Shown: positions 39,642-64,000, counted from the first letter of the stretch. The stretch: DNA of 64,000 nt from Nevskiaceae bacterium (GCA_965216845.1 OZ244200.1:3027368-3091367), one strand, 5' to 3'. Numbers and translations: made by a program. The notes: generated by a model from the letters alone, not told the origin.

Positions 39642-39683
39642 CGCGTTTCTCCTCCTCTTGGCGCCGCTGGCGCCGCCGGCCAA

Positions 39684-40583
39684 TCAGCGACCGGCACTGA
39701 CCTTCATCAGCAGGCCGATCTCTTCCATCGCGTTCCCCGGCACCACAAAGGACGAGGTGTCGCGGATTTCGGCAAGCTGATCGCGCACATCCTCGGCCGA
39801 GAGCTGCGGATTGAAGTACCCGGGAATCGCACCCACGAAGATACGCCCGACACGGCCACCGCCGCAACTGAAGATCTCGCCGCTGGGCTCGCAGGACTCA
39901 TGCGCCAGATAAGCCACCACCGGCGTCACCTGCTCCGGATTGAGCTTTTCAGCCATTGGGCCGAGCAGTTCCTCGGTCATGCGCGTGCGCGCAGCCGGCG
40001 CGATGACGTTGACCTTGACGTTGGCCTTGGCGCCTTCAATGGCGGCCGCGTGCGAAAAACCGACGATGCCCATCTTGGCCGCGCCGTAGTTGGTTTGCCC
40101 GAAATTGCCGAACAGGCCAGCCGCAGAAGTGGTGTTGACCACCCGACCATAGCCCTGTTCGAGCATGCGATTCCAGGCCGCACGGGTGCACCACAGGGTG
40201 CCGTAAAGATGAACGTCAATGACCGGGCGAATGTCCGCCTCGGTGGCATTCTTGAAGGCCTTGTCGCGCAAAATACCGGCGTTGTTGACCAGGATATCGA
40301 TGCGCCCGAAGCCATCGATGGCGGTGCCGATCACGGCCTCGGCACCCGCCTCGGTCGACACCGAGTCATAATTGGGAATGGCTTCGCCGCCAGCGGCACG
40401 GATCTCGTCGCAGACTTTCTGCGCGGGCGTCTGCGAAGCCCCGCTGCCGTCGGTGGCGCCGCCCAGATCGTTGACCACCACCTTGGCGCCGCGCGAAGCC
40501 AGGAACATCGCATGACTGCGCCCCAGTCCCTGTCCCGCGCCCGTCACCACCGCGACCTTACCGTCATAACGCATCTCGCTCAT
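39684..40583 (-). CDS. SDR oxidoreductase, MFE-2-type (3-hydroxyacyl-CoA dehydrogenase-like)
   Basis: 299 aa (RYDGKVAVVTGAGQGLGRSHAMFLASRGAKVVVNDLGG...NNAG...YGAAK), the pattern of the peroxisomal multifunctional enzyme type 2 N-terminal domain. Confidence 0.85.
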   Translation of the reverse strand: MSEMRYDGKVAVVTGAGQGLGRSHAMFLASRGAKVVVNDLGGATDGSGASQTPAQKVCDEIRAAGGEAIPNYDSVSTEAGAEAVIGTAIDGFGRIDILVNNAGILRDKAFKNATEADIRPVIDVHLYGTLWCTRAAWNRMLEQGYGRVVNTTSAAGLFGNFGQTNYGAAKMGIVGFSHAAAIEGAKANVKVNVIAPAARTRMTEELLGPMAEKLNPEQVTPVVAYLAHESCEPSGEIFSCGGGRVGRIFVGAIPGYFNPQLSAEDVRDQLAEIRDTSSFVVPGNAMEEIGLLMKVSAGR

Positions 40584-40615: not shown

Positions 40616-40646
40616 TTGAAACTACCTAACGATAGTTTGGTACTCT
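40616..40646 (+). promoter_or_regulatory. Candidate promoter with a 19-nt spacer (TTGAAA-N19-TACTCT) in the divergent SDR / acyl-CoA operon control region
   Basis: The spacer ctacctaacgatagtttgg is 14/19 identical to the spacer of the DUF1329 promoter candidate at 60768-60798 (minus strand). The -10 element ends 56 nt upstream of the first ATG (40703). Confidence 0.4.
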
Positions 40647-49006: not shown

Positions 49007-49336
49007 AGCAGAACCACGCCAACGACAACGTTGGCCGGGCCACGAATTGGAAAGCCGCTACCCGGTATCGCTGACCGTTGCCAGCGTGGCCCTCAACATC
49101 ACCCTGTGATCCAGCGTGATACGCTGAGTCTGGACCTGCCGGGCTACTGCGGCACGCTGCCGGATCTGTGGTCCCACGCGGTTTGCCGGCAGACGGCATC
49201 GCCGAACCGGAGGCGCGCGAGCAGCCCCGATGTGACCCGCCTGGGACGCTTGCGCTCGGATTGGCGAAGCGGTATCTTCGTGCGTAGTGCATCCCCGCAC
49301 ACCACACGAACATCGACCCGCTTCAGGAGGCTCACG

Positions 49337-50251
49337 ATGGCACTCGCAAATCGAAAGATCGGCTACGACGAGGTAGAACCGCGCGACCTGCGCTTCAATT
49401 TGGGCAAGGATCAGGTTCCGCGCTACTGGATCAACGGCGACCCCTGGACGACTCACTTCTTCAATTCCATCATGGCAGCCGTTCCCGACGGCGAGCGCTG
49501 GGTCATGCAATGTGTGCGGCGCAGCCTCACTCAGCTCAAGGACGACACGGTACGCAAGGCCGGCATCGCCTTCATCAAGCAGGAGCATTACCACGCGCGT
49601 GAGCATGACGACATGAATCACGCACTGATCCAGCAAGGCGTGCCGCTGGATGTGGTGGAACGCAACTTCAAGGTGATCCGTTCGGTGCTGGAAAAGCTCA
49701 CGCCGCCGAGCATGCACCTGTCGATGATGGCCTCCTTCGAACACTTCACCGCCACCATGTCAGCGGTATTCATCGATCATCCGGAAATGCTCGACGACTC
49801 CGATCCGCGCATTGCGGCAATGCTGTTCTGGCACTTCGTCGAGGAGACCGAGCACAAGTCGGTGACCTTTGACGTGTTCCAGGACGCGGTTGGCAGCTAC
49901 CCACAGCGCGTGCTGGGCATGCTGATCGCAAGTACGATGTTTCTGCCCATGGTTCAGGGCCACATGCTGTACCTGGCCTGGAAAGACGGGCAACTGCGCA
50001 ACTGGCGCTCGTTGCTGCGCTGTCTGGATACCCAGTTCGGTCGCCAGGGAGTATTCACGCGCCTGCTGCTGGGCCACTACTTCCCGTACTACAGCCCCAA
50101 GTTCCATCCTTGGGACGCGGACAATCGCTCCAAGATCAGCGCCTGGAAAAAGGCTTTCGCCGCCACCGGCGACACATTCGCCGCCTATGCCCAGTTCCGC
50201 AAGGCAGCCGGCCTGCCCGCAAGATCAGATCTGGTTGCGCAGGCCGCCTAG
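49337..50251 (+). CDS. Predicted metal-dependent hydrolase (COG3687/PF10118-like)
   Basis: 304 aa from the ATG at 49337, 6 nt after AGGAGG. Motifs are FFNSIMAAVPDGERW...FIKQEHYHAREH...FWHFVEETEHKSV. Confidence 0.7.
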   Translation: MALANRKIGYDEVEPRDLRFNLGKDQVPRYWINGDPWTTHFFNSIMAAVPDGERWVMQCVRRSLTQLKDDTVRKAGIAFIKQEHYHAREHDDMNHALIQQGVPLDVVERNFKVIRSVLEKLTPPSMHLSMMASFEHFTATMSAVFIDHPEMLDDSDPRIAAMLFWHFVEETEHKSVTFDVFQDAVGSYPQRVLGMLIASTMFLPMVQGHMLYLAWKDGQLRNWRSLLRCLDTQFGRQGVFTRLLLGHYFPYYSPKFHPWDADNRSKISAWKKAFAATGDTFAAYAQFRKAAGLPARSDLVAQAA

Positions 50252-50589: not shown

Positions 50590-51402
50590 ATGGCCGAGAA
50601 AGCCACTTACCGCATGGCGGAACTGGTCAGTCGCAGTGGCGCCAGCCGCGAGACGGTGCGTTACTACATTCGCGAAGGCCTGCTGCCGCCGCCGCACCGC
50701 ACCGCCCGGAACATGGCGTGGTATTCCGACCGCCACCTCGAGTTGATCAAACTCATCCGCGTGCTCCAGGACGAACAGTTCCTGCCGCTCAAGGCAATCA
50801 AATCGCTGCTCAACAAGGATCAGGAATACCAGTTCACCCCGCGACAACGGGAGATTTTCGCCAACATCCTCACTGAAATGGCTTCGCAGTCTCGTCGCGC
50901 CCTGCCGCGGCCGCCCGGCTCCCGGCTGGCCAGCGCGCTGGGCTTGAGCGATGAAGACTACGAGCACATGGCGAGCATGGGGCTCATTCGCACCGGCAAT
51001 GACCCACTGACACGCGACGAAGAGGATCTGCTCCGTCAGTTTGCGGTCCTGCGGCAAAGTGGCATGACCAAGGAACGTGGCTTCTTACCGGAACACCTGG
51101 AAATCGTACAGGCGGCCGCTGACATCCTGTTTGATCAGGAGTTGCGCATGTTTCAGACGCTGCTCGACAACCTGCGCGACGATGAAATTCCCGGCATCAT
51201 GGAGCGCGTCATCCCCGCCATCAACCGAATCTTCGGATTGTTGCACGCACGCAAACTACGCGCGTTCGTCGCCCGCTATGCACCCCAGGAAAGAAACGGT
51301 GGGTCCGCAACTGCTGACACCACCGATGCAACGGAAAAACCGTCGCCACCCGCAGCCTCCAGCCGCCGGCGACGTCGCTCGTCCGCAACCCGCGATAGCT
51401 AG
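50590..51402 (+). CDS. MerR-family transcriptional regulator with a long C-terminal domain
   Basis: 270 aa. The N-terminal HTH reads YRMAELVSRSGASRETVRYYIREGLLPPP...YSDRHLELIKLIRVLQDEQFLPLKAIK. Confidence 0.9.
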   Translation: MAEKATYRMAELVSRSGASRETVRYYIREGLLPPPHRTARNMAWYSDRHLELIKLIRVLQDEQFLPLKAIKSLLNKDQEYQFTPRQREIFANILTEMASQSRRALPRPPGSRLASALGLSDEDYEHMASMGLIRTGNDPLTRDEEDLLRQFAVLRQSGMTKERGFLPEHLEIVQAAADILFDQELRMFQTLLDNLRDDEIPGIMERVIPAINRIFGLLHARKLRAFVARYAPQERNGGSATADTTDATEKPSPPAASSRRRRRSSATRDS

Positions 51403-51981: not shown

Positions 51982-53046
51982 TCAGTTCAAGGCTGCGATG
52001 ACTTGAACACCGCTGCCGGTGGCGGCATAGAGTTTGCCCTTCCAGGGCAGCAGCACGGTGAAGATCTCGTCCAGCGTCTCACCTTCGGGTCTGTCGGCAA
52101 ATTCAAGAACTGAAGGCGCCCTGCCCGCTTCAAGCACGACCACCTTCTCGCTTCTTCCGGCCGCCGCCACCCGCCCGTTTCCGAGTTGGGCGAGGTCGAA
52201 CAAGGGTTTTTCGACGCCCGTCGATACCGGCTCCCATTGCGGGTTGCACAGATCCGCAGTTCGGAAGGCGTTACCCCGCATACCGACCACCAGCAGACCG
52301 CGTTCCCCTTCCGGAATCGCTGAGTACAGCGACCCATCGTACGGCACATCCAGAATCACCCAGTTCCGCCCATCCACGGAAATGGCCACCAATCCCATCT
52401 CGCCAACCAGCACGAAGGTGCCATCGTCTGCTTGCAGCAGATCATACATATGGAATCCGTTATCGCTGAGGGTGGTGTCGGCAAGGTCCGCCCAGGTCTT
52501 GCCGCCGTCATCGGTAACTTTGAACAACCCGAAGGCACCAACGGCGTAGCCGGTCTTTGCATCCGTGAACAGGACATCCAGAAAAGGATTGCCACCGTTG
52601 CCTCCGAAAGCCTGCACCGACCAGCTCTGTCCACCGTCACCCGTATACAGGATGCTGGCATCGTGGCCGACCGCCCAGCCGTGTTGATCGTCGGCGAAAG
52701 TCACGGCGTTGAGCATCGCATTCACCGGAGAGGGCACCTGCGTCCATTCCTCACCGTCCTGCGAAGTGATGATGATGCCGCGCTCGCCAACGGCGACGAG
52801 CTTATCTCCGGCGGCGGCCACGTCGTTGAGCTGCGCCTGGACGGCGAGCGGCTCGATTGCGGCCGGCGTCGGTTGGCTCGCTGCCACCGCGTTGGCTGCG
52901 GTGCCTGCTGTCGCCAATGCGGCTAGCACCCACAGCAGTTTTCCCATCAGATTGTTCATATGCTTGGTCACGGAACTTTGCTCGCTCATAATGCTTATCG
53001 TCGGTCCAGGGGCCTGGACCAGGCCCCGCAATTCCATCAAATCCAT
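51982..53046 (-). CDS. Ycf48-like BNR/Asp-box beta-propeller protein (periplasmic)
   Basis: It has repeated Asp-box motifs (TSQDGEEWTQV, TGDGGQSWSV, VTDDGGKTWADL). The ORF ATG at 53046 overlaps the RND stop (TGATG). However, the signal peptide (MNNLMGKLLWVLAALATAGTAANA) begins at codon 30, about 52959, so the start is uncertain. Confidence 0.8.
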   Translation of the reverse strand: MDLMELRGLVQAPGPTISIMSEQSSVTKHMNNLMGKLLWVLAALATAGTAANAVAASQPTPAAIEPLAVQAQLNDVAAAGDKLVAVGERGIIITSQDGEEWTQVPSPVNAMLNAVTFADDQHGWAVGHDASILYTGDGGQSWSVQAFGGNGGNPFLDVLFTDAKTGYAVGAFGLFKVTDDGGKTWADLADTTLSDNGFHMYDLLQADDGTFVLVGEMGLVAISVDGRNWVILDVPYDGSLYSAIPEGERGLLVVGMRGNAFRTADLCNPQWEPVSTGVEKPLFDLAQLGNGRVAAAGRSEKVVVLEAGRAPSVLEFADRPEGETLDEIFTVLLPWKGKLYAATGSGVQVIAALN

Positions 53047-55676
53047 CAGCTCGATGCCGGTGTCGGCTCTGCCTCGGGCGCGTCCGTATCGGCGTCGTTC
53101 GGGGCATTCGGATTCGGCCGCAACAGCAAGGCCGCAAACGCTGGCAGGATGAAGATGGCGGCAACCGCGTTGGCCAGAATCATCACGTTCAGCAGAATGC
53201 CCATATCCACCTGGAATCGAAGACCGGAGAACAGCCAGGTGGCCACGCTGGCCGCCAGTGCCAGTGCGGTGAACACCACGGCCTTGCCGGTCTGACTGAG
53301 TGCGTCGGCGTAGGCCTGACGCATCGACATGCCCTTCTCCTTCACGTTTTCCTCCAGCACCGAATAGATATAGATGCCGTAGTCAACCGCGATGCCGGCC
53401 GAGAAAGCCACCGTGGCGATGTTGGTCACCTTCAAGCCGATCTCCAGGTACACCATCACCGTGTAGATGAACACCGACGACACGATGATCAGCGGCGTGA
53501 GAATGCAGATCACACTGGCAATGTTGCGGAAGGACACCCAGATACTGAGGCCGATGGCCACATACAACCACAGCAGCACGGTGAGTTCGGTATCTTCCAC
53601 CACATCATTGGCTGCCGCCATCACGCCGACATTGCCCGTCGCCAGTCTGAAGGTCACCGGTGAATCCTCGGGCAGCTCGTCGACGAAAGCTTCAAAGGAG
53701 TCGATGACGGTGTCGATGGTCTTGGCCTTGTGATCCGCCGTGAACACGAACAGCGGCATCGCGCTGCAGTCGGTGTTGAGCAGGCCGGTGGAACTCGGGA
53801 ACGGCTGCACCGTCACCACCAGCGCACCGGACTCGCGCGGCAGCACGTTCCATTTGGGATGGTTCTCGTTATAGGCGTTGTAAACCACTTTTTGCATCTT
53901 GGGCAGCGACAATGTCGACTGTACGCCGGGGGTGTTCTCCATGCGCCAGGCCAGCTGGTCGATCACACCGACGACGGAATGGTCGATGCAGGCATCAGCC
54001 TGGGTCTCGGCGATGATCTTCAGCACGTCCACACCGATGGAGAAGTTGTTGACGATGGCGTCCGTATCAACGTTGTAGGTCGAGTCGGTGTGCAATTCCG
54101 GCGTGCCGGGATGCAGCTCGCCGATGGCCAGGTTGCGGTTGATGTGGTGAGAAACGCCCCAGGCCACCCCGGTGCCCAGCAGCACGAGCACCGCCGTTCG
54201 CTTGAGGATACCGGCCGAGGCCAGGTGCCAGACCGGATCCAGCATACGATCTCGGCGATGCTGGTGACGGCGAAACTTCTCCGGGTTGCGGATCGGCGCA
54301 TAGGACAGCAAGCAGGGCAACAGAAACTTCTTGCAAACCACCACCGCAATCAGACCGAAGCAGGCGTTGATCGCCATCTCCTGGACAATGCCGATGGGAA
54401 TCAGCAGCAGGGTGCCGAAGCCGATGAAATTCGTGATCAGTGCGGTGATGCCGGGAATGACCAGCCGCTTGTAGGTTCCGACTGCGGCGTCGTAGCTGTT
54501 CAGCCCTTTGTTGGCGGTCTCCAGCAACCAGAAATTGGTGATCTGGATGCCGTGCGAAGTACTGATGGCCACAACCAGAAACGGCACCAGGATGGCGAAC
54601 GGGTCGAGTCCGTAACCGAACAGATGCAGCATGCCCAGCTCCCAGACCACCGCCAGCAGTCCGCAGGACAACGGCAGCAAGGCCACCAGCCAGGATCCGG
54701 TGTACATCGCCAGCACGATCCAGACCATCAGAATTGATATGGCAAAAAAGATGACAACTTCGCCCGATTTTTCCGCGATATCGCCGACGATCTGCACGAA
54801 GCCGATGTTGTGGATGTTGATGGACGGGTTGTAGTCGGGGTTGTCGACCTCGTTCACATCGAAGTCGCTGCCGGAAAGCGTGGCCGCGGTGAACGCGCCG
54901 TTCTCATCCTTGTAGCGAAAGTCCACATCGGAAAAGCGGAACAGCAGGCTGGTCGGATCCGTGTATGAAATGTGTGCCACATCGCCGGCCTTGAGCGGCG
55001 GAAAGTCCTCCTTGAGCCGGAATTCCCACATCTTCGGACTGATGAAGCGATGCCGGATCTGCTCCAGCCCGTCCTCGGCCTTGAAGTAGTCCAGCTTTTC
55101 ACCACTGACCGGGTCACGTTCGATCAGCTCGCCGAAAATCATCGCGCCCCGCTCGTCGTTGGACACCAACCGACCGATCACGTCCGCCTTTTCCACGTTG
55201 TTGCGAACGGTCTGCAACATCTCCGGCGATGGCGTGAAGTCCGCCGGCACCACGTTGCCGCCACGGAAGCCGCCCTCGACCACCTCCAGATAACGCACGT
55301 CCGGCGTCATGATCGAGCTGACGCGCGACCGGTCCATGCCGGGAAGAAAGAACATCGCGTCGCTGGCCTGACGCAGCGTGGCCATGAACGACGGCTCGTA
55401 GATGTTCCCGTTACCGGGCTTCTGCATGACCGCCAACAGCACGGTATTGGCGCCACCGAACTCACGCTGGTATTCCTTGAACACCTCAATATAGGGATGG
55501 CCCTGCGGAAGCTGCTTCTCGAAACCTGCATCCAGCTTGAGCTGGGCAGCGTGCCAGCCGAGAAAGAGCGTGGTCAGAAACAGCACGATCAGCAATCGCG
55601 CACGCTTGTGAAAGATGATCGGGAGGGTGGTGTCCACATACCATTTCGCGAACCCGCCTTTTAGCTCACCGTGCAT
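53046..55676 (-). CDS. RND-superfamily transporter, MMPL/HpnN-like
   Basis: 876 aa with two 6-TM bundles each preceded by a large periplasmic loop. GGAG lies 8 nt upstream of the ATG. Confidence 0.9.
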   Translation of the reverse strand: MHGELKGGFAKWYVDTTLPIIFHKRARLLIVLFLTTLFLGWHAAQLKLDAGFEKQLPQGHPYIEVFKEYQREFGGANTVLLAVMQKPGNGNIYEPSFMATLRQASDAMFFLPGMDRSRVSSIMTPDVRYLEVVEGGFRGGNVVPADFTPSPEMLQTVRNNVEKADVIGRLVSNDERGAMIFGELIERDPVSGEKLDYFKAEDGLEQIRHRFISPKMWEFRLKEDFPPLKAGDVAHISYTDPTSLLFRFSDVDFRYKDENGAFTAATLSGSDFDVNEVDNPDYNPSINIHNIGFVQIVGDIAEKSGEVVIFFAISILMVWIVLAMYTGSWLVALLPLSCGLLAVVWELGMLHLFGYGLDPFAILVPFLVVAISTSHGIQITNFWLLETANKGLNSYDAAVGTYKRLVIPGITALITNFIGFGTLLLIPIGIVQEMAINACFGLIAVVVCKKFLLPCLLSYAPIRNPEKFRRHQHRRDRMLDPVWHLASAGILKRTAVLVLLGTGVAWGVSHHINRNLAIGELHPGTPELHTDSTYNVDTDAIVNNFSIGVDVLKIIAETQADACIDHSVVGVIDQLAWRMENTPGVQSTLSLPKMQKVVYNAYNENHPKWNVLPRESGALVVTVQPFPSSTGLLNTDCSAMPLFVFTADHKAKTIDTVIDSFEAFVDELPEDSPVTFRLATGNVGVMAAANDVVEDTELTVLLWLYVAIGLSIWVSFRNIASVICILTPLIIVSSVFIYTVMVYLEIGLKVTNIATVAFSAGIAVDYGIYIYSVLEENVKEKGMSMRQAYADALSQTGKAVVFTALALAASVATWLFSGLRFQVDMGILLNVMILANAVAAIFILPAFAALLLRPNPNAPNDADTDAPEAEPTPASS

Positions 55677-55734
55677 TCATGAATCTCCGCAAGTATTAAG
55701 AATTGTTGCTGCTTTCCGACCGTTGCCGCATCGG

Positions 55735-55785
55735 CAGAAGAAAAAGCTTTCGTCCACGGGTCCGGCCATGGCCGGACCCGTGGAC
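55735..55785 (-). terminator. 34-bp perfect palindrome plus T-run on the minus strand; terminator/attenuator between the lipoprotein gene and the RND gene
   Basis: 55752-55785 (gtccacgggtccggccatggccggacccgtggac) equals its own reverse complement. On the minus strand it is followed by gaaagcTTTTTcTTcT. Confidence 0.65.
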
Positions 55786-55819
55786 CGTATCCAAGGTTTG
55801 ATGCCACTGTCTGCGGCAA

Positions 55820-56581
55820 TCAGCCGTCGCTGACACAGATCTCGAACAGCCGCAAGCCATTGAGCACTTGCAGGCCGCCGCCGAAATCCAGACGCACTTC
55901 ATCAAACTCCTTGGAAAACTGCGCGCCAACGGTCCGTGGTCCGGGGTTGGCTGGCGTAGTCAGGACCGAAGGTAGATCGAGCAGGCTCAACACGGCGAAC
56001 ACCTGGCCATTTGGACTGGCCGACGGATCGGTCGACTCCTGTTCCTGCCCATCCAGAAGGGTCGTGACGGTGATTTCCTGGTTCAGTCCGATGGTCAGCG
56101 GTATGGCGTCCTCTTCGCCGGCCACGAAAACCGCGACCCGGCTGTCGGGCGGGTGCGTGCGTGCCGAATCGAATACCGAGAGGAAGGCCGTGCCGGTCAC
56201 CGCAACGGGCACGTTGAGTGTGGCAAAGTTGGTCGGGTCGTCGTCAACCGCAGCCTCGGCGTCCATCACCGTACACCCCACGCACACACCACTGAGGCCC
56301 GTCCTCACCAGGCCTCGAGGCGCACGCAGCGGTTCGAAGGCGTTGCCGGGCGCGCATTGCTGGGGCGCGCTGGCAAAACCAGCGCCGCCGCCGTTGGGTG
56401 TGTCCGGGTCGGAGCAGCCAACCGCCAGCGTCGCCGCCAGCAAACCGGCCGCACCGGCCATTCTCCAGGCTTTCGCCGGCCGTGCTGCGTGACCTGCATG
56501 GATGCCCGCATGACGCATGTTTTGTTCAGCGCTGGATGGCGCGCTGCGCCATGGATTCAGTTTCTCGATGTTGTCATTCAT
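55820..56581 (-). CDS. Hypothetical lipoprotein, 4 conserved Cys (copy A), no family recognised
   Basis: 253-aa ORF with an ATG 3 nt after GGGGGGAGAG and 15 nt after the DUF1302 stop. The lipobox is LAVGC|SDP at about residue 56. Alternative starts are M22 (56518) and M41 (56461). It is a paralog of 61179-61874. Confidence 0.6.
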   Translation of the reverse strand: MNDNIEKLNPWRSAPSSAEQNMRHAGIHAGHAARPAKAWRMAGAAGLLAATLAVGCSDPDTPNGGGAGFASAPQQCAPGNAFEPLRAPRGLVRTGLSGVCVGCTVMDAEAAVDDDPTNFATLNVPVAVTGTAFLSVFDSARTHPPDSRVAVFVAGEEDAIPLTIGLNQEITVTTLLDGQEQESTDPSASPNGQVFAVLSLLDLPSVLTTPANPGPRTVGAQFSKEFDEVRLDFGGGLQVLNGLRLFEICVSDG

Positions 56582-56596
56582 GATCTCTCCCCCCGG

Positions 56597-59173
56597 TCAG
56601 AACTGGTACTTGACGTAGAAGCCCAGGTTGTCCCGGTCTGCCGTCAGATTGTTTTCGCCGGCGCCGGCAATCATGTTGTAGACCACGTTGAAGGTCAGCG
56701 CCTTTTCATAGCGGAACTCCAGGATCGAGGTCAGCTGATAACGGCCTTCGATGAAGTTGAACAGCGGAGCCGGCGAATTGCCATAGACGTCGTGCTGCCA
56801 GAGCAGCAGCGGCTGGATGCTGATGGACGGCAGCACCGACTCGTAGAGGATGCGCGAAACCACGCGGTAGCCGGTCGAAAAGCTATCGGCAAAGGCATCT
56901 CTCGGCGCCTGGAAGGGGTTGAACCGGATGCCGTCCGGGCCAATGGTGCAGGCGATGTTGGTGGAGCAAGCCAGTTGCGAGCCGTCCGCACCGCTGCCGT
57001 CGGCGCCAGCCGAGGCATGGGTATAGGCGGTCAGCGGACCTTCCAGTTGCAACTCGTTGAAGGACGGCATGTTCAGCACGTGCGTCGCCGCCAGTTCGTA
57101 GACCATCAACACCTGGTCGGCGCCGATCAGCTTGGACGGCCAGTCGGACATGCTGTACAGGCGGGTTGCACCCAGGGTGTACTGCGCAACGTCGAACTCC
57201 TCCCAGCCGCGGATGTGGCTGTTGGGCGCCGGATCGTCACCGAGTGTGCCACCGCGATACGGTACCAGGAAGCTGGGGAACGAGCGCGCCGTGGACGGTA
57301 CGCCGGCGAGCAGCAGGAAGCTGGTGTCATTGAAATAGGGAACGCCGTCGCCGTCGGTGGCGTCGCTGCCTTCGTAGACGAAATACTGGCCGGTGACGTT
57401 CTGGCCATTGCCACCCGGCGTGCCTTCGCTGTCCTCGGCGAAGCCCACCGCCGCCACGGTGCCGTCGCAGCCATCGTCGGGGCCGTTACAGTGTCCGAGC
57501 GTTGGTTGCAGCGCGGCAAACAGCACATCCACCAGCGCCACTTGCAGCGGCTGATCGGGCCGGTAGGCGACCTCACCCTGGAAGGAGTAGTCGCCGTAAG
57601 TGGTATTGAAGCTGAGGCCGAACATCTTCAGATCTTCAGGGTAGGTGAGCTGGATCTCGGCCGTGTCCAGCGGAATGATCTCGCTCTCCGGTCGGCCCGG
57701 CTGCGGAAGCAGCAGATTCGCCACCCCGGTGACGGCATCCAGCGGCGTGCCGTCGACCCCCAGAGTATTGGCCACCTCCGGTCGCGCGGTCACCAGCCCC
57801 GCCAGGTCGGTGGCCGCCTGCAGAACGCCTCGCGGATAGCTGCTGTTCACCACCAGGTGCAGATTGGGGCACAGGGTCAGAATGTCAAAGGTGTTGTTGG
57901 CATTGCGACCCTGGGTATTGCCTGCCGCGCGCTGACAGCTCGCGTTGGTCGCGAAAGCATCCACATACGGCAGCTTGGAGTGGTAGTTCATGAAATAGAA
58001 GCCCAGCTCGGTGCCGTAGTTGAGCCAGTCGGCGTAGTACTTCAGGCTGAAGCCGTACTCGCCGCCGTTGCGGGCCTCGTCATCGCGTCTGCGGCCGACC
58101 GACAGCGTGGTCTTCGACACCAGACCAAACGGATTGGCGATGGCGGTGCCGAGTTGATTGAGATCGTCCGGCGCCTGTCCGAAGCTGGCGTTGAGACGAT
58201 CAGAGCCCAGGTTGTCGGTCCCTGCATCGATGAACGAGAAAAAGCTTCCGGGGGGCGGGATCTCCACCGGCTGCCAATTGAACACGTAGTGGGCCTGCAG
58301 ACTGACGCCACCGCCCAGGTAGGTGGAAATGTTGGCCATATTGACCGGGACAAACAGATCCTCCAGCAGCGCGTTGCCGAGCCGGAAGATGTTGTTGGCG
58401 TTCACCGGATTGGCCTGGGTCAGGCTGTTGATGACCGCGGCGGTGCTTTCGCCCCAGTTCACCACCTGTTTGCCGACGCGAAGGGTGATGTCCTGATCAA
58501 CCACCGGCAGCGTAAAGGGCACGGTCAGATGCAGGTCGAGCAGATCATAGAACAGGTATTCGTCCGCGATGCGGTCGCCACGCTTCTGGCGCACCACGGC
58601 GCCGCGACCGAGCACCTCGTCATAATAGCGGTTGCCGAAAGGGTCGCCGCGCGTGAGCACCTCGTCGAAGTTCTCCGGGGTGACCTTGTTCGGGTGGTAT
58701 TCGTCGAAATCGTAGTTGACCGGGTCGTAGACACCCCGACCGCGCACGAACAGCTCCCACTCGCCGTACTCCCACTGATCGAAGAAACGGAACTTGACGT
58801 CCGTGTTCAGAACGATCGGCGCCTGAACGATATCGCCCTTGTCGTAGTTGAGGTTGCCGTTGTCAAAATTCATCGACGACTGACCCGGTGCGTCGCGCAG
58901 GCGCGCGGCCGGCCAGTCCTGATCGCGGATAACACCCTGGCAGAGCTGAAAGACGCCGGTGCAGACGTCAGGATTGAGGTTGGATTTGCCAACCAGGTAG
59001 TCCGCGCGGTCATGCAGACGCCACTGTGCCCCCGCAGTAAAGCTGTTGTTCAGGATCGCCGAAATGTCCTGCCCGAACACGCCAAAGTCCAACTCCCGCG
59101 CCGAAGCGCTGGTACTCACCGCAAGTGTGAGTGCCGCTGCGGCGGCGACTCTCCCCGTCCTCTTCATCGTCAT
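56597..59173 (-). CDS. DUF1302 family outer-membrane beta-barrel protein (copy A)
   Basis: 858 aa with a signal peptide (MTMKRTGRVAAAAALTLAVSTSASA). It has the RVGKQVVNWGEST motif I associate with DUF1302 and a C-terminal beta-signal ending ...GFYVKYQF. GGAGAGGAG lies upstream. Confidence 0.85.
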   Translation of the reverse strand: MTMKRTGRVAAAAALTLAVSTSASARELDFGVFGQDISAILNNSFTAGAQWRLHDRADYLVGKSNLNPDVCTGVFQLCQGVIRDQDWPAARLRDAPGQSSMNFDNGNLNYDKGDIVQAPIVLNTDVKFRFFDQWEYGEWELFVRGRGVYDPVNYDFDEYHPNKVTPENFDEVLTRGDPFGNRYYDEVLGRGAVVRQKRGDRIADEYLFYDLLDLHLTVPFTLPVVDQDITLRVGKQVVNWGESTAAVINSLTQANPVNANNIFRLGNALLEDLFVPVNMANISTYLGGGVSLQAHYVFNWQPVEIPPPGSFFSFIDAGTDNLGSDRLNASFGQAPDDLNQLGTAIANPFGLVSKTTLSVGRRRDDEARNGGEYGFSLKYYADWLNYGTELGFYFMNYHSKLPYVDAFATNASCQRAAGNTQGRNANNTFDILTLCPNLHLVVNSSYPRGVLQAATDLAGLVTARPEVANTLGVDGTPLDAVTGVANLLLPQPGRPESEIIPLDTAEIQLTYPEDLKMFGLSFNTTYGDYSFQGEVAYRPDQPLQVALVDVLFAALQPTLGHCNGPDDGCDGTVAAVGFAEDSEGTPGGNGQNVTGQYFVYEGSDATDGDGVPYFNDTSFLLLAGVPSTARSFPSFLVPYRGGTLGDDPAPNSHIRGWEEFDVAQYTLGATRLYSMSDWPSKLIGADQVLMVYELAATHVLNMPSFNELQLEGPLTAYTHASAGADGSGADGSQLACSTNIACTIGPDGIRFNPFQAPRDAFADSFSTGYRVVSRILYESVLPSISIQPLLLWQHDVYGNSPAPLFNFIEGRYQLTSILEFRYEKALTFNVVYNMIAGAGENNLTADRDNLGFYVKYQF

Positions 59174-59291
59174 CGTTGTGTCTCCTCTCCTCGAACGCCC
59201 GACTGATTATCGATCTGGTGTGCGCTGTGTCTGCCGCGCAATCAGGTAAACCAAGCTTCGGGATCCTCATCCTGGAAGCCTCGATCATTGA

Positions 59292-59355
59292 CTGCCCGCC
59301 CGCGGCGGCATCTCGCGGGCGGGCAGGTTGTGTAATGGAGCGGGAGTCTCCCGCT
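59292..59355. other. Two strong stem-loops between DUF1329 and DUF1302 copy A
   Basis: The first is a 13-bp perfect stem ctgcccgcccgcg (59292-59304)/cgcgggcgggcag (59314-59326). The second is a 7-bp stem agcggga/tcccgct (59339-59355). A T-run follows only on the plus strand. Confidence 0.5.
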
Positions 59356-59359
59356 TTGT

Positions 59360-60721
59360 TTATTTCGCCGCGCGGCGCTGAATGGCCGAAGGCTCGAAAT
59401 AGCCATCCGGGAAATCCAGGGTGCCGTCAGGCGACTGATCCTCGTTCTGCATCGCGGTGACGAAGTAGCGTCCGCTGTTGAAGTGGTAAATCACTTCGGG
59501 GATCGTCGTGCTCGCCATTACGTTGGAACCGTAGAGCAGGTGTCCTTCCTGAAGCTGCATCAGCTGACCCTGGTGATCGTAGTTGTCACGCGCAACGATG
59601 TTCCAGGTGTCCTCGTCGAGGTAGAAACGAATCTTGCCGAAGGTGTGACGCAGGTCGGGCCGGTTTTCCGCTTCCACCACCCAGACGCGGTGCAGCTCAT
59701 AACGCGGCAGCTCCGGATTGACGTGGCGAGGGCGCGCGATATCGGCGTATTTGATCTTGTTGCCGGCGATGCGATAGGAGTTGTAGGGAATGTACAGTTC
59801 CTTGCGTCCGACCAACTTCCATGTATAGCGCTCGAGCACGCCGTTGAACATGTCAACCTGATCGTAGAACTGGTGACCGTCGGTGCCCTCATAGGGGTTG
59901 TCACAGCAAACCGCCGGCGCGCGCCGGATGCGCTTGAGCGCCGGCGAGTACAGCCATGCCGCGCGCCCCTCCGGTCCGGTGCCCGCCTTTTCGTGCGCGA
60001 GGATGAAGGTTCCGGCCAGCCGCGGCGGATTGACGATCTCCGAAGCGTATTTGATCGAAATCACGCCCGGCTTGAGTTCCAGCGCTGGTTCGATCTCGAT
60101 GTTGTTGTAGTAGAACCTGACGTCCTCGACGATCTTGGTCAGCGAGTATTCGCCATCCAGCTGCACGATCATCTGGTTGTTGAAGCGCCGGAAGGTAGAG
60201 CCGCGGAACTTGGTCTTGTGATTCCAGATGGGTTCAGCGCCGGACTGCGGAATCGGGAAAGGGTAACCGAGAAAGGCGTTGCGCGGCTTGTCCACGGTGT
60301 CGAGTACCGCGGTGGAGGCGTTCTTGATCGATCCGTCGAGGATCTCCTTGGGCATGTTGGCAATGCGGTGGCTCGGATAGACATTCATCCGGTAAGAGTC
60401 CGGATAACGCTTGAGCAGCTCCTTGTGCCCCTCGGTGAGCTTGTCGGCGTACTTGCCCACGTTCTCCCCGGTGATCGCGAACAGCGGCTCTTCGGCGTCC
60501 AGGTCCGGATAGCTCGGCCAGAAACCCTTGAGCGGACCCTCTTTCGGCCGCGGCGCCCATTCCGGAATCGAGCCATCTTCATTGCCGGCGTGGATCGCGC
60601 CGACCGGCGTCAGCTCCTTGCCGAGTTTCGCGACCTCCTCCGGTGGCGCCTTGGCGGCAACGGGCAGTACCACTGCAGCAAGTAACGCTGCACACAGCAC
60701 GGATCTGTTTTGAATTTGCAC
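59360..60721 (-). CDS. DUF1329 family (LolA-like fold) periplasmic protein
   Basis: 453 aa from the GTG at 60721, 6 nt after AAGGAG, giving a signal peptide VQIQNRSVLCAALLAAVVLPVAAKA. The track ATG at 60781 would add 20 non-signal residues and lies inside the promoter candidate. The family assignment is from recollection of the DUF1329 size and pattern and its pairing with DUF1302. Confidence 0.8.
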   Translation of the reverse strand: MQIQNRSVLCAALLAAVVLPVAAKAPPEEVAKLGKELTPVGAIHAGNEDGSIPEWAPRPKEGPLKGFWPSYPDLDAEEPLFAITGENVGKYADKLTEGHKELLKRYPDSYRMNVYPSHRIANMPKEILDGSIKNASTAVLDTVDKPRNAFLGYPFPIPQSGAEPIWNHKTKFRGSTFRRFNNQMIVQLDGEYSLTKIVEDVRFYYNNIEIEPALELKPGVISIKYASEIVNPPRLAGTFILAHEKAGTGPEGRAAWLYSPALKRIRRAPAVCCDNPYEGTDGHQFYDQVDMFNGVLERYTWKLVGRKELYIPYNSYRIAGNKIKYADIARPRHVNPELPRYELHRVWVVEAENRPDLRHTFGKIRFYLDEDTWNIVARDNYDHQGQLMQLQEGHLLYGSNVMASTTIPEVIYHFNSGRYFVTAMQNEDQSPDGTLDFPDGYFEPSAIQRRAAK

Positions 60722-60749
60722 CTTCTGCTCCTTATCTGGGTGGTTCTCG

Positions 60750-60798
60750 ATTCTATTGTCTTCAACCGATCTACCAAACAATTGGTAGGTGACGTCAA
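60750..60798 (-). promoter_or_regulatory. MerR-type promoter candidate: TTGACG-N19-TAGATC with a 7-4-7 dyad; it overlaps an alternative TTGGTA-N16-TAGAAT
   Basis: The minus strand reads TTGACGtcacCTACCAAttgtTTGGTAGATC (plus-strand coordinates 60798-60768). The dyad CTACCAA-ttgt-TTGGTAG occupies 60771-60788. TAGAAT lies at 60755-60750. Confidence 0.45.
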
Positions 60799-61178
60799 GC
60801 TAACACGCTGCTACGGGCGGCGCAAGGATTGACTGACTGGCCAACCGTTGAAACACGAGCCGATAGGCAGGTGGGAAAAGCTAGCAGATCAGCGCCAATT
60901 CGGCACCCATTGCCGCCACAGAATCCGACCTGGAGCTGGCCAGAGCCCCGCTGCAGAGAAGCTCGAACGAGGCGCTGGGTATTTGCCGAAACCGGCATCG
61001 AATCCAGCGCCAGAAGAAATTTCGTTCCGCTACGCCGCCGCGACACTTGTCATCCGCACGGCCCGGCGCCGCGCCGGCTTTGCCTGCCGGGGCGCACGCA
61101 CTGCTGCCGGCGACCATCGCGCAGATCGTCAGGAACCAGCGCGATGTCTTGTTTTTCGTACTCGCGCGCTTCAGCGCG

Positions 61179-61874
61179 CTACGCGTCGATGCAAAGGCTG
61201 AACACGCGCAAGCTGTTGAGCAGGTTCACCGCACCGCCGAAATCCAGACGTACCTCGTCGAACGCCTGCTCCGTCACCAGCCCGATGAAACGGGGTTCAG
61301 CCTGTGGCGTACCGGGTAACAGAATCGGAGCTTCGAGAATCTGTAGCGCCAGCGCCGGGCTGTCGTTGGTAGGGCTTGTGGAATCCTGTTCCACGCCGTT
61401 GAGAAACGTGGTGATTGTAGTCTGTTGGCCGACCGCGACCGTCAGCGGGATGGCGGCCTGGTCATCGCCGCCCACCAGGAAGCCGACGCGTCTGCCCGGC
61501 GAGGTGACGCCGGCGCTGTCGAACACCGAGACAAAGGTACTGCCGGCAAGTCCAGCTCCGACCTGCAGGGTTGCGAAACTTTCCGGGTCGGCGTCGACCA
61601 CCGCTTCGGCATCTACCACTCTGCAGGCGACGCAGCCGCCGGAGATGCCGGAATCGAGTACCGCCCGCGGCGCCTGCAGCGGCGCGAAGGCATTGCCGGG
61701 TGCGCAGGCTTCTGGCGCACTCATGACCGAGCCGGCGCCGTGGGTGGAATCGGCCGGATCGCTGCAGGCGCTCAGGCTGGCGCCGGCAAGCACTGCGGCC
61801 AAGGTGTAGCCGATCACCCTGCGCGCGCTTTTGCGCGCGGGTTTCATCACGCTCAAGGGAGTGGAGACGTTCAT
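61179..61874 (-). CDS. Hypothetical lipoprotein, 4 conserved Cys (copy B)
   Basis: 231 aa with lipobox LSAC|SDP. Its start is 3 nt after the DUF1302 copy B stop. It aligns over its full mature length with copy A; by eye roughly half the residues are identical, including CAPGNAF, C-x-x-C, DAEA-VD-DP, FDEVRLDFGG and the C-terminal Cys. Confidence 0.6.
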   Translation of the reverse strand: MNVSTPLSVMKPARKSARRVIGYTLAAVLAGASLSACSDPADSTHGAGSVMSAPEACAPGNAFAPLQAPRAVLDSGISGGCVACRVVDAEAVVDADPESFATLQVGAGLAGSTFVSVFDSAGVTSPGRRVGFLVGGDDQAAIPLTVAVGQQTTITTFLNGVEQDSTSPTNDSPALALQILEAPILLPGTPQAEPRFIGLVTEQAFDEVRLDFGGAVNLLNSLRVFSLCIDA

Positions 61875-61877
61875 GGC

Positions 61878-64000
61878 TTAGAATTGGTATTTGAGGTAGA
61901 AGCCGAGATTGTCGCGGTCGGCCAGCAGGTTGTTGGTGCCGGCGCCGGCGTAGAGGTTGTAGACCACATTGAAGCTGAGCGCCTTTTCATAGCGGAACTC
62001 CAGGATCGAGGTCAGCGAGTAACGACCTTCGATGAAATTGAACAGCGGAGCCGGCGAATTGCCATAGACGTCGTGCTGCCAGAGCAGCAGCGGCGCGATG
62101 CTGATGGACGGCAGCACCGACTCGTAGAGGATTCGCGCGACCACGCGGTAGCCGGTCGAAAAACCATGCGCAAACGCATCCCGCGGTGCCTGGAAGGGGT
62201 TGAATCGGATGCCGTCCGGGCCGATGGTGCAGGCCACATTGGTCGAGCAAGCCAGTTGCGAGCCGTCCGCACCGCTGCCTTCGGCGCCAGCCGAGGCATG
62301 AGTATAGGCGGTCAGTGGACCTTCCAGTTGCAACTCGTTGAAGGACGGCATGTTCAGCACGTGCGTCGCCGCCAGCTCGTAGGCCATCAGCACCTGGTCG
62401 GCGCCGATCAGCTTGGACGGCCAGTCGGACACGCTGTACAGGCGGGTTGCACCCAGGGTGTACTGCATGACGTCGAACTCCTCCCAGCCGCGGACGCGGC
62501 TGTTGGGCGCCGGGTCGTCGCCCAGGCTGCCGCCGCGATAAGGGACGATGAAGTTCGGAAACGAGCGCGCCGAGCTGGGAACGCCGGCCAGCAACAGGAA
62601 GCTGGTATCGTCGAAGTACACGTTGCCATCGGCATCGACGGCGTCGCTGCGGTCGTAGATGAAGAACTGCCCGGTGGTGTTCTGCCCGTTGCCGCCGGGC
62701 GTGCCGGTGCTGTCCAGCCCGAAGGATACGGCAGCCGCCGTTCCGAAACAGCCGTCGCCTGGGTCGTTGCAATGCCCCAGCGTGGGCGCCATGGCGGCGA
62801 AGCCCAGATCCACCAGCGACACCTGCAGCGGCAGGTCGGGCCGATAGGCAAGCTCACCCTGGAAGGAGTAGTCGCCATAGGTGGTGTTGAAGCTCAGGCC
62901 GAACATCTTGAGATCTTCGGGGTAGGTCAGCTGCGCGTCCGCGGTGTCGAAGGGAATGATCTCGCTGAGCGGCCTGCCCGGTTGAAACACCAGAATGTTG
63001 GCCAGGCCGGTGACCACGTCCAGCGGGGTGCCGTCGATGCCGATATCCGCCGCCAATTCGGGGCGGGCGGCTATGATTTGCACCGCGTCCACCAACGCCT
63101 GGGTGACGCCGGTGGGCTCCTCGACCAGAGCCAGGTTCGGGCACAGAGTCAGGATCTCGAAGGTATTGCGCGCATCGCGACCCTCCGGATTGCCCGCAGC
63201 ACGCATGCAGCTGGCATTCGAGGCGTAGATGTCGACGTAGGGTAGCTTGGAGTGGTAGTTCGAGAAATAGAAACCCAGCTCGGTGCCGTAGTTCAGCCAG
63301 TCTGCGTAGTACTTGAGGCTGATGCCGTACTCGCCGCCGTCGCGCGCCCGCTCATCCGGCCTGCGGCCGATGGACAGTGTGGTGCGTGACACCAGCCCCA
63401 GGGGGTTGGCCAGCCGGGTCCCCAACTGTCCGAAATCATCCGGCGCCTGGCCAAAACCGCCGTTGAGGCGATCCTCACCCAGGTTGTTGACTCCGGCGTC
63501 GAGGAAGGAATAGAAAGTGCCGGGTGCGGGGATGTCCACCGGCTGCCACTCGAAGGCGTAATGGGCCTGCAGGCTGACACCGCCGCCCAGGTAGGTGGAC
63601 AGGTTGGCCATGTTGACCGGGACGAACAAATCCTCCAGCAGCGCGTTACCGAGCCGGAAAACGTTGTTGGCGTTCACCGGATTGGCCTGAGACAGACTGT
63701 TGATGATCGCCACGGTGCTTTCGCCCCAGTTCACCACCTGTTTGCCGACGCGAAGCACGACGTCCTGATCCACCACCGGCAGAGTGAAGGGCACGGTCAG
63801 ATGCAGGTCGAGCAGATCGTAGAACAGGTATTCGTCCGCGATGTCGTCGGCGCGCTTCTCGCGCACCACGGCGCCCTTGAGCAGGGTGGCGCCAAAATAG
63901 CGGTTGGCGAACGGGTCGCCGCGGATCAGCACCGATTCGAAGTTCTCCGGAGTGACCTTGTTCGGGTGAAATTCGTCGAAATCATAGTTGAGCGGATCGT
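61878..64000 (-). CDS. DUF1302 family outer-membrane beta-barrel protein (copy B), 5' end beyond the window
   Basis: The frame stays open to the window edge (...DPLNYDFDEFHPNKVTPENFESVLIRGDPF...), collinear with copy A. It ends ...GFYLKYQF. Confidence 0.85.
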   Translation of the reverse strand, partial: DPLNYDFDEFHPNKVTPENFESVLIRGDPFANRYFGATLLKGAVVREKRADDIADEYLFYDLLDLHLTVPFTLPVVDQDVVLRVGKQVVNWGESTVAIINSLSQANPVNANNVFRLGNALLEDLFVPVNMANLSTYLGGGVSLQAHYAFEWQPVDIPAPGTFYSFLDAGVNNLGEDRLNGGFGQAPDDFGQLGTRLANPLGLVSRTTLSIGRRPDERARDGGEYGISLKYYADWLNYGTELGFYFSNYHSKLPYVDIYASNASCMRAAGNPEGRDARNTFEILTLCPNLALVEEPTGVTQALVDAVQIIAARPELAADIGIDGTPLDVVTGLANILVFQPGRPLSEIIPFDTADAQLTYPEDLKMFGLSFNTTYGDYSFQGELAYRPDLPLQVSLVDLGFAAMAPTLGHCNDPGDGCFGTAAAVSFGLDSTGTPGGNGQNTTGQFFIYDRSDAVDADGNVYFDDTSFLLLAGVPSSARSFPNFIVPYRGGSLGDDPAPNSRVRGWEEFDVMQYTLGATRLYSVSDWPSKLIGADQVLMAYELAATHVLNMPSFNELQLEGPLTAYTHASAGAEGSGADGSQLACSTNVACTIGPDGIRFNPFQAPRDAFAHGFSTGYRVVARILYESVLPSISIAPLLLWQHDVYGNSPAPLFNFIEGRYSLTSILEFRYEKALSFNVVYNLYAGAGTNNLLADRDNLGFYLKYQF

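Follow-up and report, generated by a model that had tools for sequence, protein, structure and literature searches.

It is still poorly understood how Gram-negative degraders get near-insoluble compounds through two membranes and the periplasm between them. The question is raised by a gene cluster at one end of a 64,000-nucleotide (nt) stretch of DNA from a Nevskiaceae bacterium (GCA_965216845.1 OZ244200.1:3027368-3091367), which was analyzed as a whole and is referred to here as the window. The cluster encodes two outer membrane (OM) beta-barrels of the DUF1302 family, each followed by a lipoprotein, together with a LolA-like DUF1329 protein, an RND transporter, and a Ycf48-like propeller. 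What would such a set of proteins carry, in which direction, and why with two barrels? Tentatively, we see in the locus a system that spans the envelope and handles very hydrophobic molecules, of the AmeABCD type and in an elaborated form specific to the Nevskiales, with uptake of substrates of a Baeyer-Villiger monooxygenase (BVMO)/esterase pathway as the favored direction; we put the probability of this reading at roughly 45%. The core four-family module and the idea of a trans-envelope route are already published and are not new. What appears to be new is the lipoprotein family, its fold and the wider domain family to which it belongs, the long-loop barrels, and a conserved two-unit arrangement tied to BVMO/esterase operons.

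Seven open reading frames (ORFs) run from position 51982 to the window end, all on the minus strand, as are all long ORFs with high third-position GC content in that region. In order of transcription, they are the following.

61878..64000, minus strand: DUF1302-B, long-form barrel, C-terminal 706 of 850 residues in the window (PF06980, E 2e-105; frame open to the window end)
61179..61874, minus strand: lipoprotein B, 231 amino acids (aa), lipobox LSAC (Cys37) followed by SDP; no Pfam/NCBIfam family
59360..60721, minus strand: DUF1329, LolA-like periplasmic protein, 453 aa (PF07044, E 2e-116; PF17131 LolA_like, E 3.5e-09)
56597..59173, minus strand: DUF1302-A, long-form OM beta-barrel, 858 aa (PF06980, E 8e-137)
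55820..56581, minus strand: lipoprotein A, 253 aa, lipobox LAVGC (Cys56) followed by SDP; no Pfam/NCBIfam family
53046..55676, minus strand: RND transporter, HAE3/MMPL type, inner membrane, 876 aa (PF03176 MMPL, E 2e-15; TIGR00921 HAE3, E 2e-42)
51982..53046, minus strand: Ycf48-like (COG4447/BNR) periplasmic protein of the seven-bladed-propeller type, 354 aa as the longest ORF (PF14870, E 1.6e-15)

A 457-bp gap lies between lipoprotein B and DUF1329, and a hairpin terminator lies between lipoprotein A and the RND gene. A first-pass annotation, made from the sequence without database searches, had given the same order and strand, and its family assignments were borne out by Pfam, which places both DUF1302 proteins, DUF1329, MMPL, and PSII_BNR above their cutoffs. 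The TGATG overlap that it reported is present at positions 53044-53048, where the ATG of the propeller gene overlaps the RND stop codon. Its picture of proteins distributed over the whole envelope as a candidate route fits the families found, with the core of that idea already in print.

The two lipoproteins set this cluster apart. Neither matched Pfam at an E value of ≤0.01, and neither matched NCBIfam. In lipoprotein A, the lipobox is followed by a Gly/Pro linker of about 20 residues and then by a jelly-roll domain some 175 aa long, whose invariant cysteines (C76, C100-x-x-C103, and C249) recur in lipoprotein B. The two proteins are 45% identical (BLASTP, E 4e-61) and share the same domain. 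Both have the lipobox with serine at position +2 that was noticed at first pass, with SDP after the cysteine, and both are predicted from sequence to be lipid anchored. The lipobox cysteine is invariant in 28 of 28 aligned family members, together with four further cysteines that include the CxxC pair. Coupling to the barrels is tight: only 15 nt separate the DUF1302-A stop codon from the lipoprotein A gene, which shares one reading frame with the barrel, and only 3 nt separate that of DUF1302-B from the lipoprotein B gene. A word-indexed search of 5.8 billion proteins defined a close family of 28 clusters with A-like and B-like branches. Lipoprotein A has, in addition, an unusually long N-terminal stretch (residues 1 to 40, ...KLNPWRSAPS...) ahead of its hydrophobic signal segment; this stretch is kept in three relatives (P0002, P0003, and P0005) and absent in most, and the start codon is uncertain.

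Is the lipoprotein peculiar to this genome? Our survey was small, the genome pattern scan giving 10 loci and the metagenome pattern scan 1. Within it, the co-occurrence with DUF1302 that the first-pass annotation had put forward for checking was found in every close-family case (10 of 10), with the lipoprotein gene lying 3 to 88 nt downstream of a long DUF1302 gene. These cases are units A and B of the window, L001, L002, L005, L006 (Solimonas), L007, L015 (two units), and L022. The lipoprotein is a conserved partner and not a quirk of one genome. That barrel units with private lipoproteins had not been described holds as far as checked: no family model covers the lipoproteins, and the passages of the DUF1302 literature consulted make no mention of a lipoprotein partner.

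The link to DUF1302 is limited to the close subfamily, because two distant single-domain relatives, P0099 and P0102, for which it was considered, adjoin OmpA-family genes and were rejected. Distant single-domain lipoproteins of this kind lie directly downstream of OmpA-family genes and not of DUF1302 (L003:1253-1882 and L004:430-1167), with two in tandem in L003, and the module may thus also pair with other OM proteins. Two further candidates were discarded. A Steroidobacter match (L008) taken for a small lipoprotein is the C-terminal domain of a 608-aa ORF, and the "SOI" protein downstream of the L016 barrel is an unrelated membrane protein.

The two-unit arrangement recurs as well. Unit B followed by unit A and then by the RND and propeller genes is common to Panacagrimonas and Algiphilus sp. 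W345/Banduia (L015). In L015, the first unit is of the B type (barrel 83% and lipoprotein 65% identical to those of window unit B) and the second of the A type (79% and 65% to unit A); unlike in the window, each unit has its own DUF1329. In the genome MAG197, the barrel-lipoprotein units B and A stand next to each other in that order, without an intervening DUF1329, and RND and propeller come after them; only the A unit is found in Solimonas SE-A11 and in L022. All four families (DUF1302, DUF1329, COG4447, and HAE3-type RND) occur together in the window, L006, L015, L016, and L019. The lipoproteins diverge much faster than the barrels, with A/B identities of 45% versus 81%. Their A and B lineages are distinct (45 to 50% identity) and orthologous across genera, which argues for maintained, differentiated functions. 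Judged from these comparisons of sequence and synteny, the two-unit duplication is old and maintained.

The barrels are themselves unusual. DUF1302-A matches PF06980 with 458 bits (cutoff, 23.2) over profile positions 3 to 541, and DUF1302-B does so with 354 bits over positions 146 to 541, its match being cut by the window end. Both end in KYQF, a C-terminal aromatic beta-signal. Signal peptides had been claimed for both barrels at first pass; that of DUF1302-A is present in the window (ending ...SASA, before RE), and that of DUF1302-B is not visible there because the gene runs off the window end. Two metagenome contigs, L020 and L021, are 99.6% identical to the window and extend past its end. 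On L021, the full DUF1302-B (L021:2367-4919) has 850 aa and a signal peptide, MRIAGIWVGLRIAATAALLSAGAAQA, followed by RD, and lies directly downstream of short-chain dehydrogenase/reductase (SDR) and esterase genes. Mapping of 100-aa fragments showed that the 858 residues of DUF1302-A exceed the 541-position profile by about 310 residues. The extra residues lie mainly in two inserts of about 90 aa (at about aa 400 to 500 and 560 to 650), plus several of 20 to 30 aa. DUF1302-A has four close cysteine pairs (71/78, 413/435, 562/569, and 736/742), two of them within the two large inserts. Among the best 120 barrel matches, nearly all have 810 to 890 aa, one 695-aa entry being probably partial. 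The source-named ones among these 120 are all from the Nevskiales, often with several per genome (Panacagrimonas, Sinimarinibacterium, Solimonas, Algiphilus/Banduia, and Fontimonas). These long-form barrels of about 850 aa appear to be new. A sequence search of the PDB found no solved homologue of DUF1302, and Pfam and NCBIfam scans of the barrels and lipoproteins found no LptD, LptE, TonB-dependent-receptor, or SusD model.

Barrels A and B are 81% identical, and their most divergent stretches coincide with the inserted loops. Third-codon-position identity forms a mosaic, reaching 0.93 to 0.95 over aa 656 to 716 and 776 to 796 and falling to 0.4 to 0.5 over aa 316 to 476. Moreover, A/B identity within a genome (81%) exceeds that across genomes (about 77%). 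Together, these patterns suggest ongoing gene conversion between the paralogues, which would explain part of their similarity. They also bear on another account, in which the lipoprotein has no part in the choice of cargo. It would help long-loop barrels to assemble, stabilize them, or plug them, facing the periplasm or sitting in the lumen, and the second unit would have arisen as a neutral tandem copy whose similarity is maintained by gene conversion. The near-identical mosaic and the tight translational coupling (3- to 15-nt spacing) agree with this account, and barrel-plus-lipoprotein pairs such as LptD-LptE are known. We nevertheless consider it very unlikely: equally long barrels, 54 to 70% identical, do without a lipoprotein, the lipoprotein lineages have stayed distinct and orthologous across genera, and elsewhere the domain belongs to surface adhesin-like proteins.

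This last point rests on the wider distribution of the lipoprotein core domain. The core, of about 150 aa (CxxC ... vDxD ... FDEVR ... LN.L.VY), is encoded at positions 55823-56386 and 61182-61739 of the window and recurs in proteins P0029 to P0177. A profile search of 1.84 billion representatives found it in at least 694 representative proteins, most of them 1,000 to 4,900 aa long with 4 to 13 tandem copies. The source-named giant proteins are Bacteroidota proteins with gliding-motility C-terminal domains, SprB repeats, or DUF11, that is, secreted, cell-surface proteins. By these profile matches, the core domain defines a large family that matches no Pfam or NCBIfam model.

We modeled the lipoprotein domain with AlphaFold2. 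A first model from a shallow alignment had a predicted local distance difference test (pLDDT) score of 55 and was replaced once the repeat domains of the giant proteins had been added to the alignment. The final model has a pLDDT of 82.6 and a predicted template modeling (pTM) score of 0.82, and the early, low-confidence model had the same fold class. In a Foldseek search against the PDB, galactose-binding-domain-like jelly rolls dominate the top 50 matches, with E values down to 1.8e-5. They include the carbohydrate-binding module (CBM) family CBM32 (4lqr, E 1.8e-5; 2v72), IFT25 (2yc2), APC10/DOC1 (1gqp), CBM29, and gingipain adhesin domains. As modeled, the domain is a jelly-roll beta-sandwich, and the model fixes its fold class, not its ligand. 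No consistent match to CBM or F5_F8_type_C models of Pfam was seen over 59 domain sequences even at an E value of ≤1, and a PDB sequence search found no homologue of the domain.

The remaining three proteins complete the published module. DUF1329 scores 389.5 bits against PF07044 and 37 bits against PF17131 (cutoff, 30); the scan was run on the listed 473-aa ORF (59360-60781), which begins at an upstream TTG at 60781. We place the start at GTG 60721, which is conserved in Solimonas and gives the length of the 453-aa orthologues in L002, L006, and L015. From this start, the N terminus, MQIQNRSVLCAALLAAVVLPVAAKA, has a Sec-type signal peptide and no lipobox. The PDB sequence search returned nothing for DUF1329. 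The RND protein scores 145 bits against TIGR00921 (HAE3), its best NCBIfam match, and is named HAE3-like/MMPL-type because this score lies below the cutoff of 351.9; its Pfam MMPL match is above that model's own cutoff. Its nearest solved structures are HpnN (5khn) and MmpL3. A simple hydropathy scan gave a first membrane segment, a loop of about 255 aa, segments at 300 to 457, a second loop (about 190 aa), and further segments at 698 to 851, with the seventh segment below the threshold; the profile may thus correspond to 1 + ~5 / 1 + ~5 membrane segments with two large loops, where RND topology calls for 12 segments arranged 1 + 5 / 1 + 5. The propeller scores 57.6 bits against PSII_BNR (cutoff, 27), and its nearest solved relative is the Ycf48-like protein 2xbg (E 1e-19). 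Its score against NF010237, the Ycf48 equivalog model, is 62.6 bits against a cutoff of 326, and the host is a nonphotosynthetic member of the Nevskiales; by its profile match, the propeller is a member of the PSII_BNR fold family only. Conservation among its orthologues begins at about residue 24, with a hydrophobic, signal-like segment at residues 37 to 55.

What surrounds the cluster points to its possible cargo. The first-pass annotation had the cluster abutting a BVMO/esterase block. The BVMO/esterase/SDR block in the window (37144-40583) is in fact 11 kb away, with plus-strand genes between; a second block, Metal_hydrol (PF10118)-SDR-esterase, does abut the cluster, ending 92 nt upstream of DUF1302-B just past the window end, as seen on L020 and L021. 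In L015 and L017, BVMO-Metal_hydrol-SDR-esterase genes lie directly upstream of DUF1329-DUF1302. A similar setting is on record: in a Burkholderia regulon, the module stands beside a flavin monooxygenase and an esterase (Suvorova and Gelfand, PMC6449761). PF10118, annotated as "predicted metal-dependent hydrolase" (window 49031-50251), recurs beside BVMO, SDR, and Abhydrolase_3 esterase genes and DUF1329/DUF1302 in L015, L017, L019, and L021, and it looks like a conserved, uncharacterized member of the catabolic module.

Mutant phenotypes of related systems also point to fatty esters. In Shewanella, Kangiella, and pseudomonads, mutants in DUF1302, DUF1329, COG4447 BNR, and COG1033 RND genes resemble one another in their fitness patterns (Price et al., bioRxiv 10.1101/072470), and the Pseudomonas putida module genes are needed on Tween 20 and butyl stearate (Thompson et al., 10.1101/2020.07.04.188060). 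The first-pass annotation had linked such clusters to growth on hydrophobic esters and alkanes. The ester half is supported by the P. putida data; in the literature searched, no paper links the module to alkane growth. AupA/AupB of Marinobacter were considered as DUF1302/DUF1329 alkane-uptake proteins and rejected, AupA being FadL-like.

We propose the following mechanism. Gene content, family membership, synteny, the fold class of the lipoprotein domain, and the conservation of the duplication are shown by the results above; lipoprotein topology, physical complexes, cargo, and direction are inferred from the families and from published work. A long DUF1302 barrel and its co-translated lipoprotein would form an OM portal, in which the lipoprotein, a Ca-type jelly-roll (CBM32-like) binding module that we infer to face the surface, would capture or select cargo. 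The LolA-like DUF1329 would ferry the hydrophobic cargo across the periplasm, docking in turn on the barrel and on an inner-membrane pair of propeller and RND driven by the proton gradient. Units B and A would act as alternative portals that have one carrier, one propeller, and one pump in common, with specificity set by the fast-diverging lipoproteins and by the loops inserted into the barrels. Long-chain ketones, esters, or related substrates of subterminal oxidation would in this way be brought into the cell. We favor the inward direction because the units sit in BVMO/SDR/esterase operons and because P. putida needs its related system on fatty esters. It is also favored because the receptor-like parts have multiplied and diverged around one shared carrier and pump, and because the lipoprotein domain is otherwise a cell-surface module. 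In eukaryotes, NPC1/NPC2 provides an inward precedent within the RND superfamily.

Co-folding of published relatives is compatible with the alternating docking of DUF1329. AlphaFold co-folding in the Foldy paper had DUF1329 alternate between the barrel and the BNR+RND pair, described as a "novel hypothesized substrate transport system" (PMC10866462). The 2026 ECLIPSE study reported an 18-stranded DUF1302 barrel with an interface pTM of 0.84 with DUF1329 and AlgE among the closest solved folds; it notes the lack of a solved structure and of a biochemical function (PMC13499233).

A more specific version of the uptake reading makes the lipoprotein a surface substrate-capturing lid or receptor of the barrel, a SusCD-like pair in a gammaproteobacterium, with the whole system running inward from jelly roll to barrel, LolA-like carrier, and propeller/RND. 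Were it true, this would be a bacterial counterpart of the NPC2-to-NPC1 hand-off and an RND-superfamily importer of water-insoluble ketones, esters, and wax-like substrates, with the A and B units giving different substrate ranges. We consider this version unlikely.

Several points weigh against uptake through lipoprotein-gated portals. To our knowledge, the bacterial RND transporters characterized so far move their cargo outward. The basis for placing the lipoproteins at the surface is the occurrence of their domain elsewhere, and a periplasm-facing position or an LptE-like plug would be equally compatible with the sequence. Five long barrels without any lipoprotein, 54 to 70% identical, occur in L016 to L019, and no large barrel feature separates lipoprotein-linked from lipoprotein-less barrels; when we looked for a barrel insertion tied to the linkage, the differences came down to two indels, of 3 residues and 1 residue, and 10 fixed substitutions. 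A strong terminator parts the OM genes from the RND and propeller genes, so that co-expression is not guaranteed. In Shewanella and P. stutzeri, pleiotropic phenotypes suggest an envelope role (10.1101/072470). Finally, the Castellaniella assay, the only transport-type assay on the system, points to export or tolerance. AmeABCD of Castellaniella defragrans is a four-part HAE3 RND transporter, and its deletion mutant accumulates more Nile Red and tolerates less monoterpene; acetate co-feeding partly rescues growth of the mutant on limonene (Puentes-Cala and Harder, PMC6394551).

These data bring in an efflux or solvent-tolerance machine, with the same architecture working outward as was proposed for AmeABCD. 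Toxic hydrophobic substrates or intermediates, such as ketones, esters, or alcohols, would be pulled out of the inner membrane or periplasm by the RND, with DUF1329 and the propeller as a bridge across the periplasm and the barrels as exit ducts. Export is what known RND transporters do, and the nearest solved relatives of this one, HpnN and MmpL3, are outward lipid movers. In addition, the module has been assigned to solvent-stress and aromatic-tolerance regulons (PMC6449761). We hold efflux, the main and a serious rival to uptake, to be somewhat unlikely for this locus. For an exit duct, there is no obvious reason to keep two copies that have diverged and that each come with their own fast-evolving lipoprotein of the binding-module kind; in L017 and L021, barrel units lie within catabolic operons with no RND gene nearby; and the authors of the P. 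putida ester study discuss ester hydrolysis or transport, not toxicity.

The outward precedents also admit export of a lipid that the cell makes for its own envelope or surface, for example a glycolipid, biosurfactant, wax ester, or OM lipid. The RND would flip or extract the lipid, DUF1329 would chaperone its acyl chains, the barrel would insert or release it, and the CBM-like lipoprotein would hold the sugar or polar head group at the OM, by analogy with LptDE and AlgE-AlgK; any effect on growth on hydrophobic substrates would then arise indirectly, by way of surface properties or emulsification. The pleiotropic phenotypes led Price et al. to suggest that a cell-wall component is exported (10.1101/072470), and the published fold comparison likens DUF1302 to the exopolysaccharide porin AlgE (PMC13499233). 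HAE3/MMPL relatives export hopanoids and trehalose monomycolate, and the fold class of the lipoproteins is that of carbohydrate-binding modules. Among the neighbors, a sugar nucleotidyltransferase gene adjoins the L002 cluster, and a wax-ester synthase gene is near that of L015. The latter, a wax-ester synthase/DGAT gene (L015:20762-22135), lies a few kilobases from the cluster in Algiphilus sp. W345/Banduia and bears on the idea of neutral-lipid export. We judge this alternative quite unlikely: no lipid or glycolipid biosynthesis genes are consistently linked to the cluster, the consistent neighbors being BVMO, SDR, and esterase genes, and a fold class alone, with no Pfam CBM match, is no proof of sugar binding.

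The elements that bear on expression of the cluster are listed below.

60750..60788, minus strand: promoter-like site TTGGTA-16-TAGAAT with palindrome, from a consensus scan; candidate operator
59292..59355, minus strand: two stable hairpins without a T-run, directly 3' of the DUF1329 stop codon (folded together, -42.8 kcal/mol, z -4.4)
55736..55785, minus strand: intrinsic-terminator-like element between lipoprotein A and RND, a 15-bp perfect hairpin (55752-55785) followed by GAAAGCUUUUUCUUCU (T-run)
50590..51402, plus strand: MerR-family regulator (PF13411, E 3e-18), convergent with the cluster

With the DUF1329 start at GTG 60721, the gap between lipoprotein B and DUF1329 is exactly the 457 bp given at first pass. 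It contains no gene remnant, and only its last ~47 nt are conserved in a relative. A sigma-70-like site lies 30 to 60 nt upstream of DUF1329, its -35 element overlapping the palindrome CTACCAATTGTTTGGTAG (60771-60788; also written CTACCAAnnnTTTGGTAG). A counterpart, CTACCAAGCGTTTGGTAG, stands at the same place upstream of DUF1329 in the Solimonas locus L006 (L006:5740-5757). Because it is conserved in Solimonas while the rest of the gap is not, the palindrome is a plausible operator. The first-pass annotation had further proposed a promoter motif shared with the BVMO block. Upstream of the SDR-esterase-BVMO operon (40623-40642) we found TACCAAAC-N-GTTAGGTA, whose half-sites are similar (TACCAA/TTGGTA) and whose spacer is longer. 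The pattern TACCWA-N-TWGGTA occurs only at these two places, with spacers of 4 nt at DUF1329 and 8 nt at the operon. We treat a shared regulator as unproven because the pattern was drawn up after both sites had been seen and the spacers differ, which leaves the claim with similar half-sites and weak overall. Exact 11-mers common to the gap and all other intergenic regions were GC-rich chance matches only, and a 14-mer match at 3767 falls in apparent coding sequence.

The palindromic terminator of the first-pass annotation was found as a perfect 15-bp stem with its T-run, and the hairpin folds with -35.7 kcal/mol (z -5.7), a stability reached by 0 of 200 shuffled sequences. The hairpins after DUF1329 may act as an mRNA 3'-end stabilizer or processing site that raises carrier levels relative to those of the barrel. 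Taken as a whole, the cluster probably consists of several transcription units, and barrel B and lipoprotein B probably belong to the upstream esterase operon. A MerR gene also adjoins the cluster in L015 and is close to it in L017; because the same neighbor recurs in related loci, the convergent MerR is a candidate regulator of the cluster. An Rfam search of the window found no RNA families.

The rest of the window is ordinary chromosome, with genes for FtsK, a Clp ATPase, type II secretion (gspDEF), PlsX, RNase E, and ThrRS. The host is a Panacagrimonas; a metagenome-assembled genome of Panacagrimonas sp. encodes a protein identical to lipoprotein A, and the genus belongs to the family Nevskiaceae in the order Nevskiales.

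The DUF1302/DUF1329/propeller/RND module is widespread, including in Pseudomonas aeruginosa, and its mutants have clear phenotypes. In the Nevskiales variant, each barrel has gained its own fast-evolving lipoprotein of the binding-module kind, and two differentiated units persist from genus to genus. If the lipoproteins select cargo, swapping or deleting them should shift the substrate range, and their topology, at the surface or in the periplasm, would help to separate uptake from export models. Their domain family, outside Pfam and NCBIfam, is common to Nevskiales lipoproteins and giant Bacteroidota surface proteins.

Compared with known systems, the lipoprotein domain finds its best structural match in CBM32-type jelly rolls (E 1.8e-5 to 1e-3; template modeling score, 0.5 to 0.65 by target length), from which it differs in having 10 to 14% sequence identity and no Pfam CBM or F5/8 type C match. 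SusC/SusD with SusE/F resembles the locus in joining a barrel to a binding module on a lipid anchor; CBM-like beta-sandwiches are part of SusE/F-like proteins, and the receptors multiply and diversify. It differs in that the window has no TonB-dependent receptor domain or SusD fold, the host is a gammaproteobacterium, and surface exposure is here presumed. LptD-LptE and AlgE-AlgK likewise combine a large barrel for lipid or polymer cargo with one dedicated, co-encoded OM lipoprotein. LptE has an alpha/beta fold and AlgK is a TPR protein, as opposed to the jelly roll of the window lipoproteins; with no relation in sequence or fold detected, the likeness would be one of working only, not of family.

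The pseudomonad system (PP_0765/PP_0766 and PP_2018/PP_2019 of P. putida) has the same four families, linked by shared fitness patterns. It is split over two loci with LuxR-type regulation, whereas the window has one cluster with MerR and BVMO/esterase neighbors, and the passages that deal with it mention no partner lipoprotein. AmeABCD differs from the window in several respects. AmeA has 605 aa, compared with 850 to 858 aa for the window barrels with their ~310 extra residues in loops, and the RND of Castellaniella has 787 aa, compared with 876 aa. The description of the cassette mentions neither a lipoprotein nor a duplicated barrel unit, and ameABC lies directly upstream of ameD, in contrast to the window order of barrel-lipoprotein, DUF1329, barrel-lipoprotein, RND, and propeller. 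The parts themselves correspond one to one in family: AmeA is a DUF1302 protein, AmeB a LolA-like DUF1329 protein, AmeC a COG4447 Ycf48-like protein, and AmeD an HAE3 RND transporter, and they too are encoded in a catabolic island for hydrophobic compounds.

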